DNA from: Dehalococcoidia bacterium
Lineage (GTDB): Bacteria > Chloroflexota > Dehalococcoidia > Lucifugimonadales > UBA2985
Length of the DNA stretch: 64,000 bases
NCBI GenBank assembly: GCA_965204895.1
Contig: OZ242025.1
Span: 1,604,864 to 1,668,863, forward strand
Direction of reading: 5' to 3'
Positions 21,045 to 48,297 of this stretch are shown piece after piece; position 1 is the stretch's first letter; each line of letters opens with the position of its first letter. The notes under the pieces were generated by a model. That model made no database searches and was not told the DNA's origin. It saw only the letters and a program-made list of their open reading frames with translations. The translations under genes and the position numbers were made by a program.

Positions 21045-21668
21045 TCACAATTCCGTTCTTGTTGGACAATAGGTACTCTGGCAATTCCCATCGCATGTGT
21101 ACCCAGTCTCTACATTCTCTTCCAGAGTTGTTAGGCAGCTCAGATCTATATCCCAGATACACCAACTAGGGCAATCCAATCTGGACCAGTGCATTCTTGG
21201 ATCCCTAGTGCGGTGAGAGATTTCCTCCGTATAAAAGGTGAGTGCCAGACCCCTGTAGTCGGCCTTCACTCGATTCCAGTCGATGTGGAAGCCATAGCAG
21301 TTGTAGCACGACCCTGAACAGCGGGGGATGCATTGACTTCTGATGGATTCTAGGTCTTCACTCTTACAGTTCCTCTTCCTTGGCTCGAGATAGCTCTCAA
21401 GGAAGTCCTCCATGTCCTTTTTGCGGGCGATCGTGAACACACTCTCGGCAAAGCGGTCTTGGTCAAACTCAAAGACCGTCATTAACCTCAGGTCTCCGTA
21501 ACACCACTCCAACGGACGCTCAGTGATGCCCGTTAGCACATGATTCTTCCAGCCATCAGTCCTGCATTCGGTTAGCCAAAGCCCCCCAGGTTTGTGGTCG
21601 GTATCCTGTGGGAGGCAGCGACGGTTCTTATCGAATGGCCTGCCTCCAAAACTGTAAAGCAGCGTCAC
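21045..21668 (-). CDS. Cys-rich hypothetical protein
   Basis: GGAGG RBS. Motifs KPGGLWLT, IDWNRVKADYRGL, LDCPSWCIWD and several Cys clusters. Confidence 0.65.
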   Translation of the reverse strand: MTLLYSFGGRPFDKNRRCLPQDTDHKPGGLWLTECRTDGWKNHVLTGITERPLEWCYGDLRLMTVFEFDQDRFAESVFTIARKKDMEDFLESYLEPRKRNCKSEDLESIRSQCIPRCSGSCYNCYGFHIDWNRVKADYRGLALTFYTEEISHRTRDPRMHWSRLDCPSWCIWDIDLSCLTTLEENVETGYTCDGNCQSTYCPTRTEL

Positions 21669-21698
21669 GAACCCCTCCTAAACTCTTGGCCTTCCGGG

Positions 21699-22049
21699 TT
21701 AGATGCTGGCCCCGCCCGCGGAAACGGGCTTGTAGTCCACCGAGAACTTTAGCTGAAGCAGTCCCCCTGATTGGCGGCGGTTCATGCGTTCGATATTTCT
21801 CTTGAACCCCTTCATCATCGGCCCCACTATGTCTCTGGCGGCAACAGAGACTGCGTAGTCCATCTGATCCTTAGTGAAGAAGCTGCTATGGTCTCCTTCC
21901 GCGCGACAATAGGGACATCTGAGGCTCTCGGTGTCCCGGCCCGTTCCCAACCTGAGCTTGAAATAGAGTCCGCAGTCTTCTTCCGGGCACTGGCGGCCGA
22001 TCATCCCCTCATCGTCCGGCTCAAGGGTCACCGTGATTTCACTCGTCAA
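21699..22049 (-). CDS. Zn-ribbon protein, probably C-terminally truncated
   Basis: GRQCPEEDC...LRCPYC motif; ends abruptly. Confidence 0.55.
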   Translation of the reverse strand: MTSEITVTLEPDDEGMIGRQCPEEDCGLYFKLRLGTGRDTESLRCPYCRAEGDHSSFFTKDQMDYAVSVAARDIVGPMMKGFKRNIERMNRRQSGGLLQLKFSVDYKPVSAGGASI

Positions 22050-22096
22050 GCACTACCCCCGGTCATATATCTTTGTTCGGACTCTCCCGACGGCGC

Positions 22097-22270
22097 TCAC
22101 AGCAACTTCCTGGTTCTTCCGCGTCTCCCGACGTATGTGTTGGCGAACACCTGGAGCCGGTTCCGTTCCATGATCCACTTGTTCCCGAACTTGGTGGCTG
22201 TGAGCTTGCCAGCCTGGCTGCGACTCGCAATTAGGAGTTGGCATTTGGGATATACCGGAGTCGTTGGCAT
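22097..22270 (-). pseudogene. Decayed excisionase-like (HTH_17) gene
   Basis: Manual translation ...AGKLTATKFGNKWIMERNRLQVFANTY...; the upstream helix is broken by a stop/frameshift. Confidence 0.5.
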
Positions 22271-22318
22271 TCGCAGTGGCGTGCGCCTCTTGACCTTCTA
22301 CCAATAGGCCGAGGGGAT

Positions 22319-23083
22319 TCACTGGATGTCTTGGCTTGTGGGGAGTAGAGGACGGATCTGCTTTTCCCGAACCTCCCCGAGCGCGTAGTCCTTTAGCCTG
22401 TCGACATCCGGCACATGCACCGACCCCGAGAATCTATCGCTGTTGTCGTCCCCGATGCGGATGAGGTCGGCAGCAGCGAGTGTTGAAATCCCGCCCGCGA
22501 CAGCCGAGCGAGACATGGCCGTCAGGCGAACGATGTCTCGCTGCCGCAGGATGATCTCGCGTTCGCAACCGTGATCCTCTCCTATCAGGGCGAGGCGGGA
22601 AATCAGGGCGGCCGTTACCCTCTGCGCCGGACTCCCGCTGATGGCGAGGGTGATCCAGTAGTAGCGCGCCAAACGCCTCAGCAAGACAAGGTACATCTCG
22701 GCACGTATCTGAGGGATCCTTTCAACTGTGAGCTTCATGGTGGCGACCGGGATGGCTACCACGGTCGCAGGCGTTGCCGCCGAATAGGAAGCCACCCAGC
22801 GCTTCGCACCCATCATGAACTCGTGGTCGCCTATGAGGAAGGGGGAGGACAGGTCCGAATATGGATACTGCCATGGCACGATCATTCCGTGCTGAACGAA
22901 GTACAGGTACCTGAACGGCTGCCCCGACCGAATGAGTGCGATGTCAGCGGAGGGCTCGATTACCAACATCTCCAATGGCTCCTGGCCACGAGAGAGAGCA
23001 TCTTCAAGCTCGACAGTGTCGACAGACTGAAAGGCCTGACACCGAGCTAGCGCCTGGGCGAAACCGGCGATTTCAATTGCCAT
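22319..23083 (-). CDS. Crp/Fnr-family transcriptional regulator (cNMP-binding domain plus HTH), divergent from CBASS
   Basis: LIRSGQPFRYLYFVQHG...IGDHEF...ASYSAATPATVVAIP jelly-roll, hinge SPAQRVTAAL, HTH LRQRDIVRLTAMSRSAV. G-rich RBS before ATG 23083. Confidence 0.85.
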   Translation of the reverse strand: MAIEIAGFAQALARCQAFQSVDTVELEDALSRGQEPLEMLVIEPSADIALIRSGQPFRYLYFVQHGMIVPWQYPYSDLSSPFLIGDHEFMMGAKRWVASYSAATPATVVAIPVATMKLTVERIPQIRAEMYLVLLRRLARYYWITLAISGSPAQRVTAALISRLALIGEDHGCEREIILRQRDIVRLTAMSRSAVAGGISTLAAADLIRIGDDNSDRFSGSVHVPDVDRLKDYALGEVREKQIRPLLPTSQDIQ

Positions 23084-23156
23084 GACGTGTAACCCCCAAT
23101 CATGATGGCGCCATATTAGCATACCAACGGGCATATGCGAAGATGTCCTCACTGCA

Positions 23157-23185
23157 TTGACTTTGTCTGTCAGAAGACATATTCT
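23157..23185 (+). promoter_or_regulatory. Sigma70-like promoter of the CBASS operon with an operator-like palindrome in the spacer
   Basis: -35 TTGACT (23157-62), 17-bp spacer, -10 TATTCT (23180-85). TGTCT-N6-AGACA at 23164-23179. Confidence 0.7.
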
Positions 23186-23229: not shown

Positions 23230-24756
23230 ATGAGAGCGGTTACTGCTCGGCAACAGGGAGACACGTACCAGGGACGAGTGTTCTGGCTGGAGGTGTGCCG
23301 CCTGTTCCAACGTCACACGAAAGTTGCGTGCGTTGGGTGCGAGATCGACGATGTCCCACACTTCGACGATGTCGCCGTCCTCTACTCCGAGCCAATCAAG
23401 GACGCCCACGGGGAGTTGGTCTCCGCCGACTACTATCAGATCAAGTGGCACGTCGACCAGGGCGGGGCGCTCACCTGCGACGCCCTAACGGACCCGTCCT
23501 TTATCGGCTCCAAGAGCACATCACTCCTCCAGCGGCTGTATGAGGCCGTCAGGGCGACATGGGCGAGAAACGAGACGGCAAGGTTCACCTTCATGACCAC
23601 GTGGAGCATCCCGGCCGATGACGTCCTTGCGAAGCTGGTGAGCGGACGCGATGGAGAGTTGAGGCTGGAAGTCCTGTTCGGCAAGGGCGCTTCCTCCCGG
23701 TTCTCCCGGGTCGTAGAGCAGTGGTCGAACCACCTGGGAGTGGGCCACGAGGAGCTGCGTAGTGTGCTCGCCCGCCTGCGGATCTCTGCCAGCTCTTTCA
23801 CCCTCGACAACCTGACCAGGACACTGAGTGAGCAATTGGCGAGGGTCGGCTTCAGAGCAGTTGACCAGGGCAGCCGCGCCAATCCATACGACAGCTTGAT
23901 CGAACGCCTGCTTTCCGAGGGGCGGAACAAGTTCACGGCCTCGGAGGTCCGGAGTATCTGCAGCGAGGAAGGACTATGGACGAACCCGGAGACGGACTAC
24001 GAAGCTCCCCTTGTCGGCATCAGGAGCTTCCTCCGGTTTGCCGAACACATGGAAGACGAAGTTGACCACTTGCTGGACCTTGCAGATCTGTTTGACGGCA
24101 GGGAGATCAGTGCACCGGAATACTGGAACGCCAGGGTTGGCCCCAAGATACATGAGTTTATGACGAGATCGGTCGCTCCCCTTGGTCAGTGCAATCTGCA
24201 CCTCTCGGCGCATAGTTCCATCGCTTTTGCGGCCGGGTACGAACTGGACGTTAAGTCCGGCACACGCGTCTCGCTAGTCCAAAACACAGCCGCCGGTAGA
24301 GTGATTTGGGACTCCTCCTCCGTGATGGCGAATCTAGACCCCAATCCCTGGAGTGTCTCAGACATCAGTGCGCACCCGAGCGGTCGTGAAGTCGGCATCG
24401 TCCTCTCGGTAACCCACGACGCAAGCTCTGAGGTTCTGGCGCATGTTCAGGAGCACATCCCAGAAGTCGGCCACGTACTCGCTTTCACGATTTCGCCCGG
24501 CATTGGCCCAATGGCAGTGAGGGGCGGGGGCCACGCGTGGATACTGGCACAGGAGTTGGTGAAGACCGTTCGGGAGCTATATCCGCGGCTCACTCCCACG
24601 GGCCCCTTGCACATGTTCAGCGCAGCCCCCAACGGCCTTGTTTTTCTTGTAGGGAGGCTCGCTCGCAGCCTTGGATCGATACAGCTGTACGAGCACGGCT
24701 TTGACTCCAACTGGCCCTCCAGGTATCGAAAGTCCCTGTCACTACCCATCGAATAG
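23230..24756 (+). CDS. cap4: CBASS effector: Cap4-like restriction-fold endonuclease plus SAVED sensor
   Basis: N-terminal GxxYQ...FDDV...YQIK nuclease motif. SAVED motifs LHLSAHSSIAFAAGY and LHMFSAAPNGLVFLVGR...LYE. Confidence 0.85.
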   Translation: MRAVTARQQGDTYQGRVFWLEVCRLFQRHTKVACVGCEIDDVPHFDDVAVLYSEPIKDAHGELVSADYYQIKWHVDQGGALTCDALTDPSFIGSKSTSLLQRLYEAVRATWARNETARFTFMTTWSIPADDVLAKLVSGRDGELRLEVLFGKGASSRFSRVVEQWSNHLGVGHEELRSVLARLRISASSFTLDNLTRTLSEQLARVGFRAVDQGSRANPYDSLIERLLSEGRNKFTASEVRSICSEEGLWTNPETDYEAPLVGIRSFLRFAEHMEDEVDHLLDLADLFDGREISAPEYWNARVGPKIHEFMTRSVAPLGQCNLHLSAHSSIAFAAGYELDVKSGTRVSLVQNTAAGRVIWDSSSVMANLDPNPWSVSDISAHPSGREVGIVLSVTHDASSEVLAHVQEHIPEVGHVLAFTISPGIGPMAVRGGGHAWILAQELVKTVRELYPRLTPTGPLHMFSAAPNGLVFLVGRLARSLGSIQLYEHGFDSNWPSRYRKSLSLPIE

Positions 24757-24785: not shown

Positions 24786-25907
24786 ATGGAACTGAACAGC
24801 TACTTCACGGACTTCCTCACCAAGATCAGGCCGACGGAGGCCCAGACCAAGGAACTGCAGGAGGCTCACACGCGCCTGCGAGAAAGACTACTGGCCGACG
24901 AGTACCTCGGGCCCAAGATCGTCAGCGTGTTCCTGCAGGGGAGCTATCGAAGATCGACGTCCATCCGACCACAGGGGGAGGACAAGCTGGACGTAGACCT
25001 GGTCGCCGTTACTCGATTCCGCCGCCAAGACTACCCGGTGGCCGACGACGTGATGAAGGAGTTCACCTCCTTCCTGAACAAGCACTACAAGGGCAAGTGG
25101 AAGAGGAAGGGACGGTCCATCGGCATAGAGATGTCCCACGTGAAGCTCGATCTGGTTATCGCGGCGGCACCCTCGGAAGAGGAGTCCTTGTCCTCCGACT
25201 TCGTCCAGGGGTACTTCACGCCTGACGACTGGCCAAAGAGCTCTGGCGCCGTGCCCGAGTATCTTGCGGATTTCTTCAAGGAACACCGCTCGGGAGAGCC
25301 GCAGTGGAAGCAGGAGCCTCTCTACATCCCCGACAGGGACACCCATGAATGGCAGCGCACCCATCCCCTGGAACAGTACAGGTGGACCACCAACAAGAAC
25401 AGGCGCACGGATGGTCACTTCGTCAACATCGTGAGGTTGGTCAAGTGGTGGTGGAGGACGGCGCATCCCGAGATTGAATATCCAAAGAGCTATCCCCTGG
25501 AGCATCTGGTCGGCGACTGCTGCCCGGACAAGGTTGAGAACCTGGCGCAAGGGTTCACCCTCGTACTAGAGAAGATGGTCGCCACGTACTCGGCATACGC
25601 GGCCGCGGGGATGGTCCCCTTCGTTCCAGACCGGGGAGTTCCCGAGCACAACGTGCTCAAGCGTCTGTCCCCAAGCGACTTCTCAAAATTCATTGAGCGT
25701 GTCAAGAGCGCCTCTGCCGTGGCGCGGAAGGCCTTGGAATCCGGCGATACGTCGGAGAGTGCGAACCTGTGGCAATCGCTCTTCGGCAAGAGGTTCCCGT
25801 CCCCTCCGGGTGGATCATCGGGAGCGGCGGCCGGGGCCGCAGCGGGGACTGCCGGATTCACGCCTCGCCGAGAGCAGACGCGCGTTGGAGGCGGAAGATT
25901 CGCCTAG
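24786..25907 (+). CDS. CD-NTase (cGAS/DncV-like, SMODS) cyclic oligonucleotide synthase
   Basis: QGSYRRSTSIRP...DVDLV...DLV triad, VRLVKWW, KSYPLE, flexible tail ending GGGRFA typical of Cap2 substrates. Confidence 0.92.
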   Translation: MELNSYFTDFLTKIRPTEAQTKELQEAHTRLRERLLADEYLGPKIVSVFLQGSYRRSTSIRPQGEDKLDVDLVAVTRFRRQDYPVADDVMKEFTSFLNKHYKGKWKRKGRSIGIEMSHVKLDLVIAAAPSEEESLSSDFVQGYFTPDDWPKSSGAVPEYLADFFKEHRSGEPQWKQEPLYIPDRDTHEWQRTHPLEQYRWTTNKNRRTDGHFVNIVRLVKWWWRTAHPEIEYPKSYPLEHLVGDCCPDKVENLAQGFTLVLEKMVATYSAYAAAGMVPFVPDRGVPEHNVLKRLSPSDFSKFIERVKSASAVARKALESGDTSESANLWQSLFGKRFPSPPGGSSGAAAGAAAGTAGFTPRREQTRVGGGRFA

Positions 25908-27724
25908 CTACTCGCCAGGAGGGATCACTCACTGAGGCTCTCCGCCTGGGTCGCAGAGCCCTGGAGTCGGTGCCGGGCATAAGGATGCTGGGGGACTTCG
26001 TCTGGTACGAAGATCGAGTGCTCTGGGCTCTGCAGTGTAGGATCACCGCGGACGTTGACCCAGGAGGCCTAATACCTCCTACAACCGACTGGTACGTCCA
26101 CGTCCGTGACACATACCCGTCCGGCCAGATCATCTTCTACCCGGCGAAGGCCGGGGGTGTAACGCACACGTTCAATCACCAGAATCACAATGGCGTAGGC
26201 CCCGACGAACTGCCGTGGAGATGTGGACGTCTCTGTGTCGACACAAGCCTTCGCACTCTGGGCCGTCGTTCCTACGATGTCGAGCCGTTCGACGCGGAAT
26301 CCAGGCTCGCCTGGCATGTCCGCCGGGTACAGGAGTGGCTTGGCCTAGCGTCACGGGGCCAACTAGTCCAGCCTGGCGACCCTTTCGAGTTGCCGCATGT
26401 TCCGTTTTCCACCGGTCCCAAGGTTGTCTTCGCCGAAGGACCGGAGAATCTCTCCTTCTGGTTGGGGCGCCACCCCCGAAAGGGCGCCGCAACTGTCCGA
26501 ATCCTGGAGGAAGACCCACCGATTCTCGTGGTGGACGACCTGAACGTGGGCAGGTCGGGAGTAGGCCTCCAGGCCCCCTGGACCAAACCTCTCGGCAAGG
26601 AAAGCGATCTTTCCGTGGCGTGGATCTGGCTCGACCGGCTACCTGTGGTCGAACCATGGGCGATACCAACAACATGGGGGGAGCTCCGAATGTGCTGCAA
26701 AGCACAGGGGGTTGATCTTGACTCTTTGTTGAGGCCGCTATGCGGCAAGCTCAGGGACAGCGGGAGGCACGTTCTGCTTGTTGGATTTCCAATCCCGGCA
26801 AGATTCAAGGAACCTGATGTCCAGGTCCACTGGCTCGCACTCTGGCTCCCTGCCCTGACCTCACGACCCCTGCCGGGATTTCGCCCCACGGAGTCGGGTT
26901 ACTGGAGCCGGGACCGATCGGTGGTGTTCGGAGACAGCGTGCCTCTCGAGTGGGTCGAGACCGAGAATTGGCACCAGGATGAGATATCAGGCCGGGGAAG
27001 GGTGAACCCATCGGTACGGTCAAAGTCTATTCTGATCATCGGTGGTGGCGCGGTTGGCTCGGCGCTGGCCGAAATGTTGGTCCGCTCAGGCGTCCAGGAT
27101 GTGACGATCATGGACGACGACCGCCTCAAGGTTGGCAACCTTGTCAGGCACACCCTCGGAGTTAGTCACCTGGACAAGCGCAAAGCTCTGACTCTGGCGG
27201 ATCGCCTCAATGATGCGGCGGTCCATTCAATCGTAACCCCCATAGATGCCACATTTCCCCCAACTGACCGCAAGGACATCAATCGGGTACTGGACGCCGA
27301 TGTCGTCATCGACTGTACCGCAGACGACTCAGTTGCGGAGCAAATGCGTAGGTTCGCCTGGGACGGCCCCGTTACCTTCGTGTCAGTGTCAGTTGGCTTG
27401 AAGGCCATGCGGGCGTTCATTTACGTGGCCCACAGCAACACCTTCCCTGCTGACGACTTCGCAGATAGGCTGGATCCTTGGCTGCGATCTGAATTGGATG
27501 GTTACGATGAGGAGTTGCCGCGGGATGGCACAGGATGTTGGCATGCGCTGATGCCGGCGCGGGTCGACGACATCTGGATGATGACCGGGGCGGCCGTAAA
27601 GGCTATAGAAGCCGCGATAGCCGGGCCTCCGAGTGAGCCCACCCTGGTCGTGTTTGAGCAGCAGTACGAAAATGGTGAATTCGTTGGGCTACGTAGAGTG
27701 TCCGCACCCGATGCCAACTCCTGA
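25898..27724 (+). CDS. cap2: CBASS Cap2 (E2-E1 fusion); start codon uncertain
   Basis: E2 domain with FNHQN...GRLC. E1 domain with IGGGAVGS, DDDRLKVGNLVRH, IDCTAD, GTGCWH. Confidence 0.88.
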   Translation: MRLATRQEGSLTEALRLGRRALESVPGIRMLGDFVWYEDRVLWALQCRITADVDPGGLIPPTTDWYVHVRDTYPSGQIIFYPAKAGGVTHTFNHQNHNGVGPDELPWRCGRLCVDTSLRTLGRRSYDVEPFDAESRLAWHVRRVQEWLGLASRGQLVQPGDPFELPHVPFSTGPKVVFAEGPENLSFWLGRHPRKGAATVRILEEDPPILVVDDLNVGRSGVGLQAPWTKPLGKESDLSVAWIWLDRLPVVEPWAIPTTWGELRMCCKAQGVDLDSLLRPLCGKLRDSGRHVLLVGFPIPARFKEPDVQVHWLALWLPALTSRPLPGFRPTESGYWSRDRSVVFGDSVPLEWVETENWHQDEISGRGRVNPSVRSKSILIIGGGAVGSALAEMLVRSGVQDVTIMDDDRLKVGNLVRHTLGVSHLDKRKALTLADRLNDAAVHSIVTPIDATFPPTDRKDINRVLDADVVIDCTADDSVAEQMRRFAWDGPVTFVSVSVGLKAMRAFIYVAHSNTFPADDFADRLDPWLRSELDGYDEELPRDGTGCWHALMPARVDDIWMMTGAAVKAIEAAIAGPPSEPTLVVFEQQYENGEFVGLRRVSAPDANS

Positions 27725-28184
27725 CCTCACCATGTGCTCCCCCGATGGGCGGTTTCGAGTCCAAGTTGGGCATCACGAGTTGGAGGCTCTATTGGATATT
27801 TGCCGCGAATCCGGCGACCTGGAAACCGGGGGAGTCTTGGTTGGTCGATACAACGAGGCTCACGACACCGCAATAGTGACACGAGTGTGGGGCCCGCCGG
27901 AAGACTCAGTCAGGAGGCGGACCAGCTTTTGGAGAGGAACTGAAGGCCTGCAACGGCATCTGGACGGGCTGTGGACGGTCCAGGAATACTACCTTGGGGA
28001 ATGGCACTATCATCCCCGGGGAGGCGGTCAACCCAGCGCTGGAGACAAACGACAGATGGTTCGGATTGCCGAATCGCTTGACTACAACACTCCGGAACCC
28101 GTGCTGATAGTAGTCGGTGGATCGGGCTGGGAAGTGGCGGCCCACGTGTTCCCGCGGCACAGTGCAGCGATTGGGCTAGTCTGA
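27711..28184 (+). CDS. cap3: CBASS Cap3 JAB deconjugase
   Basis: ETGGVLVG...YLGEWHYHP...PSAGD JAMM motif; overlaps the cap2 stop. Confidence 0.9.
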   Translation: MPTPDLTMCSPDGRFRVQVGHHELEALLDICRESGDLETGGVLVGRYNEAHDTAIVTRVWGPPEDSVRRRTSFWRGTEGLQRHLDGLWTVQEYYLGEWHYHPRGGGQPSAGDKRQMVRIAESLDYNTPEPVLIVVGGSGWEVAAHVFPRHSAAIGLV

Positions 28185-47958: not shown

Positions 47959-48297
47959 CTTCACATGTACTTTGATCTCACACATCTCGAATGGAGTAGT
48001 ATGACGGTGCCGCATCAGGTAGCGGATTAATCCTCGATCCTCAGAGACAGGTCGGGTACCACGGCCATACGAAACACGCGCCGCTTGCACTACGGCCCCA
48101 TCGTTGCCCATGTAGTCGACAAGACGTATGAAGCCATGATCTAGAATTGGTATAGTAGTATAGAGCAACCCCTCGAGAGCGGGAACAGTAGGGCGCATAG
48201 TCTCATAGAGATCGGCGCTTTGAGCTTCAGACTCGGCATGTTGCCGGTCTACTGATTCTTCCGTCGTGGCGTTACCTTCGTTGTGCTCTTCGCCCAC
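47956..48297 (-). pseudogene. thyX: Truncated FAD-dependent thymidylate synthase
   Basis: [16 protein letters not shown]...AARVSY...[16 protein letters not shown]; stops before the RHR signature, at the IS3-like end. Confidence 0.85.

Follow-up and report, generated by a model that had tools for sequence, protein, structure and literature searches.

A palindrome in a CBASS promoter as candidate operator of the divergent Crp/Fnr-fold regulator in a Dehalococcoidia genome

The 64,000-nucleotide stretch of a Dehalococcoidia genome analyzed here (assembly GCA_965204895.1, contig OZ242025.1, positions 1,604,864 to 1,668,863; "the window" in the following, numbered from its first letter) carries an operon of the cyclic oligonucleotide-based antiphage signaling system (CBASS) and, divergent from its first gene cap4, a gene for a putative regulator. 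Between the two genes lies a promoter for the operon whose spacer contains a short inverted repeat, and it is this repeat that we propose as a candidate operator of the neighboring regulator. These are the features of the locus, with lengths in amino acids (aa):

22319..23085, minus strand: regulator gene, 255 aa (P0001), ATG at 23083-23085, divergent from cap4, Crp/Fnr fold by model
23113..23141, minus strand: predicted promoter of the regulator gene, with -35 TTCGCA (23141-23136), a 17-bp spacer and extended -10 TGC-TAATAT (23121-23113), from the 19-locus alignment
23157..23162, plus strand: -35 hexamer TTGACT of the CBASS promoter (sequence, consensus scan, conservation in 19 loci)
23164..23179, no strand: palindrome TGTCT-GTCAGA-AGACA, the candidate operator (sequence, footprint, motif ranks)
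23180..23185, plus strand: -10 hexamer TATTCT of the CBASS promoter, family pattern TAnnnT, predicted start at about 23192 (sequence, scan, conservation)
23230..24756, plus strand: cap4, endonuclease-SAVED effector, 508 aa (Pfam SAVED 1.8e-22; PADLOC endonuclease effector 1.7e-150)
24786..25907, plus strand: CD-NTase (SMODS cyclase), 373 aa (PADLOC cyclase 4.4e-134; Pfam SMODS 4.8e-26)
25769..27724, plus strand: cap2 (E1-E2; PADLOC E1-E2 1.3e-196; Pfam ThiF)
27633..28184, plus strand: cap3 (JAB, deubiquitinase-like; PADLOC JAB 7.4e-43; Pfam Prok-JAB)

With a CD-NTase, Cap2 (E1-E2), Cap3 (JAB) and an effector with a SAVED domain, the operon is a type II CBASS by PADLOC. Of 401 sampled genomes of this class, the window's own among them, just 2 had a Cap4 match at E ≤ 1e-30. 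What keeps abortive-infection systems such as CBASS silent before they are needed is only partly understood.

Promoter, palindrome and their conservation

The CBASS promoter upstream of cap4 consists of TTGACT, a 17-bp spacer (23163-23179) and TATTCT. A consensus scan recovered the same promoter with 9 of 12 matches and a 17-bp spacer; between 22000 and 24500 it picked up 2 promoter-like sites, against 0.7 ± 0.8 in shuffles. Within the spacer, TGTCT (23164-23168) and AGACA (23175-23179) are perfect reverse complements flanking GTCAGA. Their axis lies between 23171 and 23172, at about -20.5 from the predicted start, and the full match to the motif described below spans 23163-23180. An earlier note on the window, made from its letters alone, had pointed to a TTGACT-17-TATTCT promoter before cap4 with a perfect 5-6-5 repeat in the spacer, and this is exact in the sequence and in the consensus scan. 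The note had also ascribed Crp-type geometry to the repeat, which fits: the inverted half-sites have GT and AC 7 and 6 bp from the axis (GT-N10-AC), with a G:C pair 7 bp from it as in sites of NtcA, Clr and CAP. In the close loci introduced below, the two bases of this seventh pair on either side, G23165 and C23178, deviate in 1/19 and 0/19.

Alone, such a 5-6-5 palindrome is weak evidence, and the weight rests on comparative tests. TGTCT-N6-AGACA has a single exact occurrence in the 64-kb window, with 0.04 matches expected, and by rough estimate the chance of some such palindrome in a given spacer is a few percent. A repeat that arose by chance and has no function could be argued from the shortness of five-base arms and from the 4 of 100 dinucleotide shuffles of the window that hold the exact pattern somewhere. 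However, the conservation of its columns in 19 loci and its top rank genome-wide under a motif derived independently make this extremely unlikely. A hairpin reading was rejected as well, for both predicted starts are downstream of the palindrome, which has just five pairs.

A genome scan provided 80 related loci, nearly all labeled Dehalococcoidia or other Chloroflexota and two Latescibacterota. In a close group of 18 distinct loci plus the window, with regulators 68-96% identical, the intergenic region can be aligned, and we scored each column of the alignment by the number of sequences, out of 19, that differ from its majority base:

-35 hexamer: 3,3,3,2,2,1 deviating per column
-10 hexamer: 0,4,10,5,1,0 deviating per column (classic TAnnnT)
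palindrome arms: 0,0,0,1,7 and 7,8,2,1,0 deviating per column
six central bases of the palindrome: 1,9,9,9,7,6 deviating per column
51 other unannotated columns, alignment positions 40-134: mean 6.5, median 7 deviating

Since one tree is common to all columns, this comparison within the alignment controls for relatedness. The arms stand apart from the other columns (Mann-Whitney p = 0.0013), and the centre is indistinguishable from them (p = 0.65). As judged from these sequences, the conserved unit is TGT(C)-N8-10-(G)ACA, symmetric around the axis but less than the perfect 5-6-5 repeat. The promoter of the earlier note gains from the same footprint, with TTGACT and TAnnnT kept across the 19 loci; of the motif conservation it had named as a check upstream of homologous loci, the hexamers and the outer arm bases bear it out in the 19 loci and the full 5-6-5 repeat (7/80 loci) does not. 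K-mer enrichment was set aside, having mainly returned shared ancestry and AT-rich promoter words.

The footprint might also be explained by the promoter itself, with conserved spacer bases that belong to an extended -35 or -10 or that set the shape of the spacer, a symmetry that is incidental and no dedicated factor at all. This would suit the position of the conserved bases, which adjoin the hexamers, and the fact that conservation within each arm is limited to the outer 3-4 bases. However, among the 239 matches to TTGACN-17-TAnnnT in the genome (2.44 Mb, 61.6% G+C), a spacer starting with TTGT occurs once and one ending with GACA once, both at the palindrome, and these spacer ends are thus no general feature of promoters in this organism. 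What recurs instead is TGn (58/239), the element that the regulator's own promoter uses. In addition, a palindromic motif of the same geometry, derived from distant loci that cannot be aligned, ranks the site first in the genome, and there the motif lies elsewhere with respect to the regulator gene and is therefore not bound to one promoter spacer. We consider a purely promoter-intrinsic origin improbable.

The motif of distant loci and the regulator protein

That motif came from a palindrome-constrained search by expectation-maximisation (EM) in 59 non-redundant upstream regions (from 68), with the 19 aligned loci and the window excluded. It reads ATGtngttnnaacnaCAT at width 18 and aATGtcgTtnnaAcgaCATt at width 20, i.e., ATGT-N10-ACAT with half-sites TGT(C/A)(G/T) in 5-N6-5 geometry, and reached a log-likelihood of 112.3 versus 40.8 ± 2.5 (maximum 43.2) in 12 dinucleotide-shuffled sets. 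A mirror-symmetry constraint on the real data, a control that retains conservation derived from ancestry, gave 68-76; the unconstrained optimum, at about 160, includes the half-site ATGTCGT. With the matrix from the distant loci, 23163-23180 comes out on top among 63,983 window positions and among 2,443,722 genome positions, and the corresponding site takes first place in 18/18 close loci of about 10.7 kb each. As far as sequence comparison can carry it, this rank is the strongest single argument for a tie between the palindrome and the regulator family.

Several smaller observations concern matches elsewhere. In locus L009 the best motif site is a neighboring one, 21 bp away. A further conserved block starting with (G/A)TGTCG is found just 3' of the cargo -10, near the predicted start and about 21 bp to the cargo side of the main site, in L002, L007, L008, L009, L010, L011, L012, L015 and L073; the window has diverged there. 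The second-best match of the motif in the window (48110-48127) is inside a 113-aa open reading frame (ORF). A regulon search with TGTC-N8-GACATA had one further match in the genome against 2 for a control pattern, and it revealed no second convincing site in this genome; the further match is intergenic, upstream of a putative recF-like ORF. The regulator itself is single-copy in the genome, which fits a local regulator. Conversely, a matrix built from the close sites gave low p-values in 17/21 and 11/35 of the distant loci with coding DNA as control, a result that we discount because intergenic DNA is richer in AT than coding controls.

The regulator is hard to place by sequence. It matches no Pfam family above the cut-off (the best, MarR_2, has E 0.0075) and nothing in PADLOC or NCBIfam, and against the Protein Data Bank (PDB) its sequence alone reaches E values of about 0.2-0.7 to cyclic nucleoside monophosphate (cNMP)-binding domains and MarR proteins. 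At least 295 homologues were found at E ≤ 0.001, two of which carry source names, Crp/Fnr family regulator and CRP-like cAMP-binding protein. A profile of 33 homologues gave weak sequence evidence (5.6e-5 to 1e-3 against HCN, CRP-family and GlxR chains). In the match to GlxR (E 5e-4, residues 6-211), the S-R-E-T-V of GlxR pairs with the invariant S-R-S-A-V of the family; similarity to CAP chains is marginal (E about 2e-3).

The predicted structure is more telling. An AlphaFold2 model from the 33 homologues, with a predicted local distance difference test (pLDDT) score of 86.6, combines a beta-barrel, a helix at 125-148 and a C-terminal helix-turn-helix (HTH). Strands between residues 39 and 113 and the Foldseek matches identify the N-terminal part as an eight-stranded, cNMP-binding-like barrel. 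The top Foldseek matches in the PDB are all Crp/Fnr proteins (Thermus thermophilus CAP, GlxR, Mycobacterium tuberculosis CRP and Clr; E 4e-11 to 1e-9), the best TM-score being 0.58/0.64 to Clr-cAMP-DNA. The C-terminal domain is a winged HTH with helices at 182-189 and 193-205, and a conserved Arg starts the recognition helix M-S-R-S-A-V-A. This residue, R193, is the counterpart of CAP R180 and is invariant in the 33 homologues and in the further loci that were translated. Homodimerization along the long helix is predicted with a score of 0.75 against 0.02 for the best control, with an interface along helix 132-150, at least 94% of contacts agreeing between runs and a partner pLDDT of at least 83. 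Of 30 proteins whose solved structure is a pair of one chain, 20 attained the mark for a homodimer, against 1 of 23 with a single-chain structure, and since CRP dimers have already been solved, likeness to those may explain the pass. By its model, then, the regulator belongs to the Crp/Fnr superfamily, and the earlier note's view of the neighbor as a Crp-type regulator agrees with both the Foldseek matches and the predicted homodimer. It is not classed as a cAMP receptor because the canonical cNMP-binding residues (Gly-Glu and Arg-Ser/Thr) are missing: in the alignment to GlxR, invariant W97 stands at the Arg position and the G-E segment is absent.

In CAP, E181 reads position 7 of the half-site and R180 reads position 5. 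In the present family, the counterpart of E181 is an invariant Ser, that of R185 is Gly, Ser, Ala or Asp, and half-site position 7 is C, not the G of CAP. The earlier note's view that the changed half-site fits the changed recognition helix is in this qualitative sense consistent. The available part of one source names R180, E181 and R185 as the main base contacts of CAP (PMC10127613). A link of residue 198 (Gly/Ser/Ala versus Asp) to the type of half-site was tried and rejected, with Asp occurring alongside both TGTAG and TGTCG sites.

The proposed operator and its mode of action

We put the probability that the palindrome is, as the earlier note had it, the operator of the divergent Crp/Fnr-fold regulator, placed for repression, at roughly 65%. 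What the computation shows is the fold, a predicted dimer, conserved promoter and half-sites, a motif common to the family and its uniqueness in the genome; that the regulator binds here, which way it acts and what it senses are inferred, as follows. The homodimer would set its two recognition helices on the two TGT(C) half-sites, so that its footprint would occupy the 17-bp spacer, exclude RNA polymerase and keep cap4, CD-NTase, cap2 and cap3 off. Repression is the natural reading because a Crp-type dimer over the spacer would block the polymerase. A signal at the N-terminal beta-barrel domain would alter DNA binding, and this signal is probably not cAMP because the domain is without the canonical cNMP-binding Arg and Glu. 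Regulator gene, own promoter, operator and cargo promoter would move jointly, as a cassette, before different defense operons.

The two promoters of this region are arranged back-to-back with 15 bp between their -35 hexamers. The predicted start of the regulator gene is at about 23106; TT is kept at its -35, and TGC as well as the T, A and final T of its -10 are invariant or nearly so in the 19 loci. The palindrome is about 65 bp upstream of this start, which is no canonical position for activation. One further feature lies between the promoters:

23140..23157, no strand: possible weak second site between both -35 hexamers (distant-loci motif score 10.55, fifth best in the window)

The regulator could thus bind the palindrome with an outcome other than simple repression, by activating or remodeling the promoter or by acting with this second site. 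Many Crp/Fnr proteins are activators, sites in distant loci vary in position relative to the regulator gene, and the second site, 23 bp away from the main one and centered at about -43 from both predicted starts, i.e., near a class II activator position, scores above the 99.9th percentile in 14/19 close loci. However, the strong and conserved site is the one that fills the spacer between -35 and -10, centered at about -20.5, and a footprint of 16-22 bp inside a core-promoter spacer excludes RNA polymerase. Furthermore, a near-consensus -35 with a 17-bp spacer makes a promoter that needs no activator, and the second site may be a by-product because its ends coincide with conserved promoter bases, its middle being variable. 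An outcome other than repression therefore appears unlikely to us.

A number of points weigh against the palindrome as a repressor-bound operator. The top genome score of 15.56 is close to the next best, 15.2, and the loci are related to one another, so that likelihoods and counts overstate their independence. The exact TGTCT-N6-AGACA occurs at this position in only seven of the 80 fetched loci, two of which come from one assembly and have identical upstream sequence; both arms are variable in their two inner bases, and the arm next to the -35 is the weaker one, with its G kept in 11/19. Part of the conservation could be promoter-related given that the conserved bases adjoin both hexamers. In the distant loci, the distance of the motif from the regulator gene ranges from -51 to -164, and its overlap with a cargo promoter was seen, by eye only, at the -35 in L024 and at the -10 in L029. 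TGT-N10-ACA is mildly enriched in distant loci (5/21 versus 1.2 in shuffles; 1 of 200 shuffles reached 5, and 13 spacings were tried). Finally, the recognition helix is near-invariant across the family, yet positions 4-5 of the half-sites differ (TGTCT/G versus TGTAG).

Portable cassette, known systems and neighboring genes

Across the related loci, the regulator family adjoins cap4-CBASS, TIR-SAVED CBASS, CD-NTase-first CBASS, E2-E1-JAB and multiubiquitin operons. Cargo of cap4, CD-NTase, cap2 and cap3 is shared by the window and L002, L005, L008, L011 and L012, while TIR-SAVED, CD-NTase and E1-E2 genes lie across the promoter from the regulator in L001, L004, L006, L014, L015 and L021. Truncated or split TIR-SAVED cargo is found in L003, L007 and L010, and L009 and L016 have multiubiquitin/E1 or E2/JAB-E1 operons (Bil-like, ubiquitin-like). 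In L073 the divergent gene row has a NucC-like DUF6602 protein in second place, and the cargo of L013 is an unknown 598-aa protein. More distant regulators, 57-65% identical, lie by defense operons with CD-NTase-first CBASS, E2-E1-JAB with patatin, DnaJ-domain genes and others. A further distant group of about 30 loci, with regulators 52-56% identical, is found on mobile elements with Replic_Relax and a TraG-like coupling protein alongside. On this comparison of gene neighborhoods, regulator and promoter region appear to act as a portable cassette in front of varied defense cargo.

Where cargo differs among loci that share a cassette, recombination must occur nearby, and the site might accordingly serve recombination during cargo exchange or another DNA-binding protein of the host. 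However, the homology between cap4-type and TIR-type loci runs about 25 bp beyond the -10 toward the cargo start and places the junction elsewhere, and no recombinase gene is conserved alongside the close loci. The motif accompanies the regulator family across the 59 distant loci, and the pattern TGTC-N8-GACATA has a single further match in the genome, at control level (2). We regard such a role as very unlikely, and the palindrome as the regulator's own operator remains our preferred reading.

The close and distant loci offered further observations. The TIR-SAVED genes are truncated (361 and 344 aa versus about 444) or split in two ORFs at L003:3763-4848, L007:3815-4849 and L010:3347-4849; L003 and L007 also lack the cyclase and E1-E2 genes, and in all three decayed loci the regulator, promoter and palindrome remain intact. 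L009 and L073, from assemblies labeled Candidatus Latescibacterota, carry the same cassette with regulators 76-79% identical, which reflects either horizontal transfer or a binning or labeling issue. Different palindromes, with geometries unlike the 5-N6-5 site, lie over likely cargo promoters in L032 (4905-4924, perfect arms of 9 bp around a 2-bp spacer) and upstream in L100 and L101 (a repeat with 9-bp arms centered on TTGACA). A metagenome scan with the regulator profile returned 16 loci, one at ≥70% identity, and seven joined the distant set.

In the mobile-element group, a Replic_Relax/winged HTH protein (about 545 aa) is convergent with a TraG/TrwB-like ATPase (about 750 aa), often with a 180-aa protein and an XRE-type HTH between them. 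Its members are L035, L037, L039, L040, L042-L047, L052, L053, L057, L059-L063, L065, L066, L068-L070, L072, L079 and others, and one chromosome carries four copies (L037, L039, L040 and L044). This group of 52-56% identity looks like a multi-copy mobile element with Pbe/Dnd-like or SNF2-PLD cargo upstream.

Among known regulators, E. coli CAP/CRP (TGTGA-N6-TCACA) resembles the present case in its fold and homodimer, both predicted here, in the 5-N6-5 geometry, in GT/AC 7 and 6 bp from the axis and in the invariant Arg. It differs in that the candidate operator is inside the core promoter and not at -41.5 or -61.5, in W97 for the cNMP Arg, in Ser for E181 and in a half-site position 7 that is C and not G. 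Similar sites are those of NtcA, a GTA-N8-TAC box whose invariant G:C pair, 7 bp out from the axis, is bonded by Arg186 (PMC11850224, available part), and of Clr from Sinorhizobium, a GTNNC-N4-GNNAC site at which an altered GT abolishes binding (PMC10127613, available part). These are likewise GT-N10-AC palindromes of Crp-family dimers, the dimer and the site being predicted in our case. However, NtcA and Clr are global regulators with known ligands (2-oxoglutarate; cAMP/cGMP), whereas the present regulator appears local (single copy, one strong site in the genome), has another pocket and stands beside defense operons.

In this last respect it resembles CapW/BrxR, CapH+CapP and CapK+CapS, which are encoded beside immune operons of several kinds (CBASS, ubiquitin-like) and presumably control them as this regulator would. 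The accessible text of a June 2026 report presents CapK+CapS as the third family of DNA-damage-responsive regulators of adjacent operons after the other two, and describes CapS as binding palindromes that overlap promoters, with part of the -10 between the half-sites of a wide palindrome (PMC13373217). Unlike these families, which use WYL, an HTH plus a peptidase and a STAS-winged HTH protein plus a kinase, the present regulator has a Crp/Fnr fold and is without a PADLOC match that would link it to any of them. It also has a beta-barrel of the small-molecule type as its sensor, where the three families respond to DNA damage. A CBASS island of Myxococcus is controlled by yet another kind of regulator, a pair of ECF sigma and anti-sigma factors, in the part of the source at hand (PMC11506125). 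A full-text search of the literature, outside of which lay subscription journals and supplements, yielded no report of a Crp/Fnr-type regulator for CBASS or other immune operons. What looks new is thus a known type of arrangement, a local repressor with a palindromic operator over the promoter of an immune operon, on a Crp/Fnr scaffold.

Beside the DNA-damage sensors, a regulator of Crp fold whose operator is defined would bring in a sensing logic of the small-molecule type. Operator and repressor together would be a ready handle for the triggers of defense in Dehalococcoidia, organisms that are uncultured or difficult to grow. Through the cargo behind it, the portable cassette could moreover reveal new defense operons. 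A bolder idea, which we would call a long shot, is that the pocket, in which Trp replaces the cyclic-phosphate Arg, responds to a signal of nucleotide type that arises upon infection and might be what the operon's own CD-NTase produces, and that the regulator founds a further family of immune-operon controllers. If this were true, a second messenger would feed back directly on the transcription of CBASS and of other cassette cargo.

On the other side of the regulator gene, three small ORFs (89, 116 and 207 aa; 21045-22322 of the window, minus strand) follow it, the first overlapping its stop codon. The 116-aa ORF matches the PADLOC defense candidate PDC-M14A (E 4.3e-10). An operon of the regulator with these three ORFs was rejected, as they were found in 0/80 loci. 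Within the CBASS operon, the cap2 and cap3 ORFs as listed overlap their preceding genes by 139 bases (25769-25907) and 92 bases (27633-27724), and family matches begin at residue 53 in cap2 and near residue 34 in cap3. Because these matches begin inside the listed ORFs, the true starts of both are probably later and the genes tightly packed.

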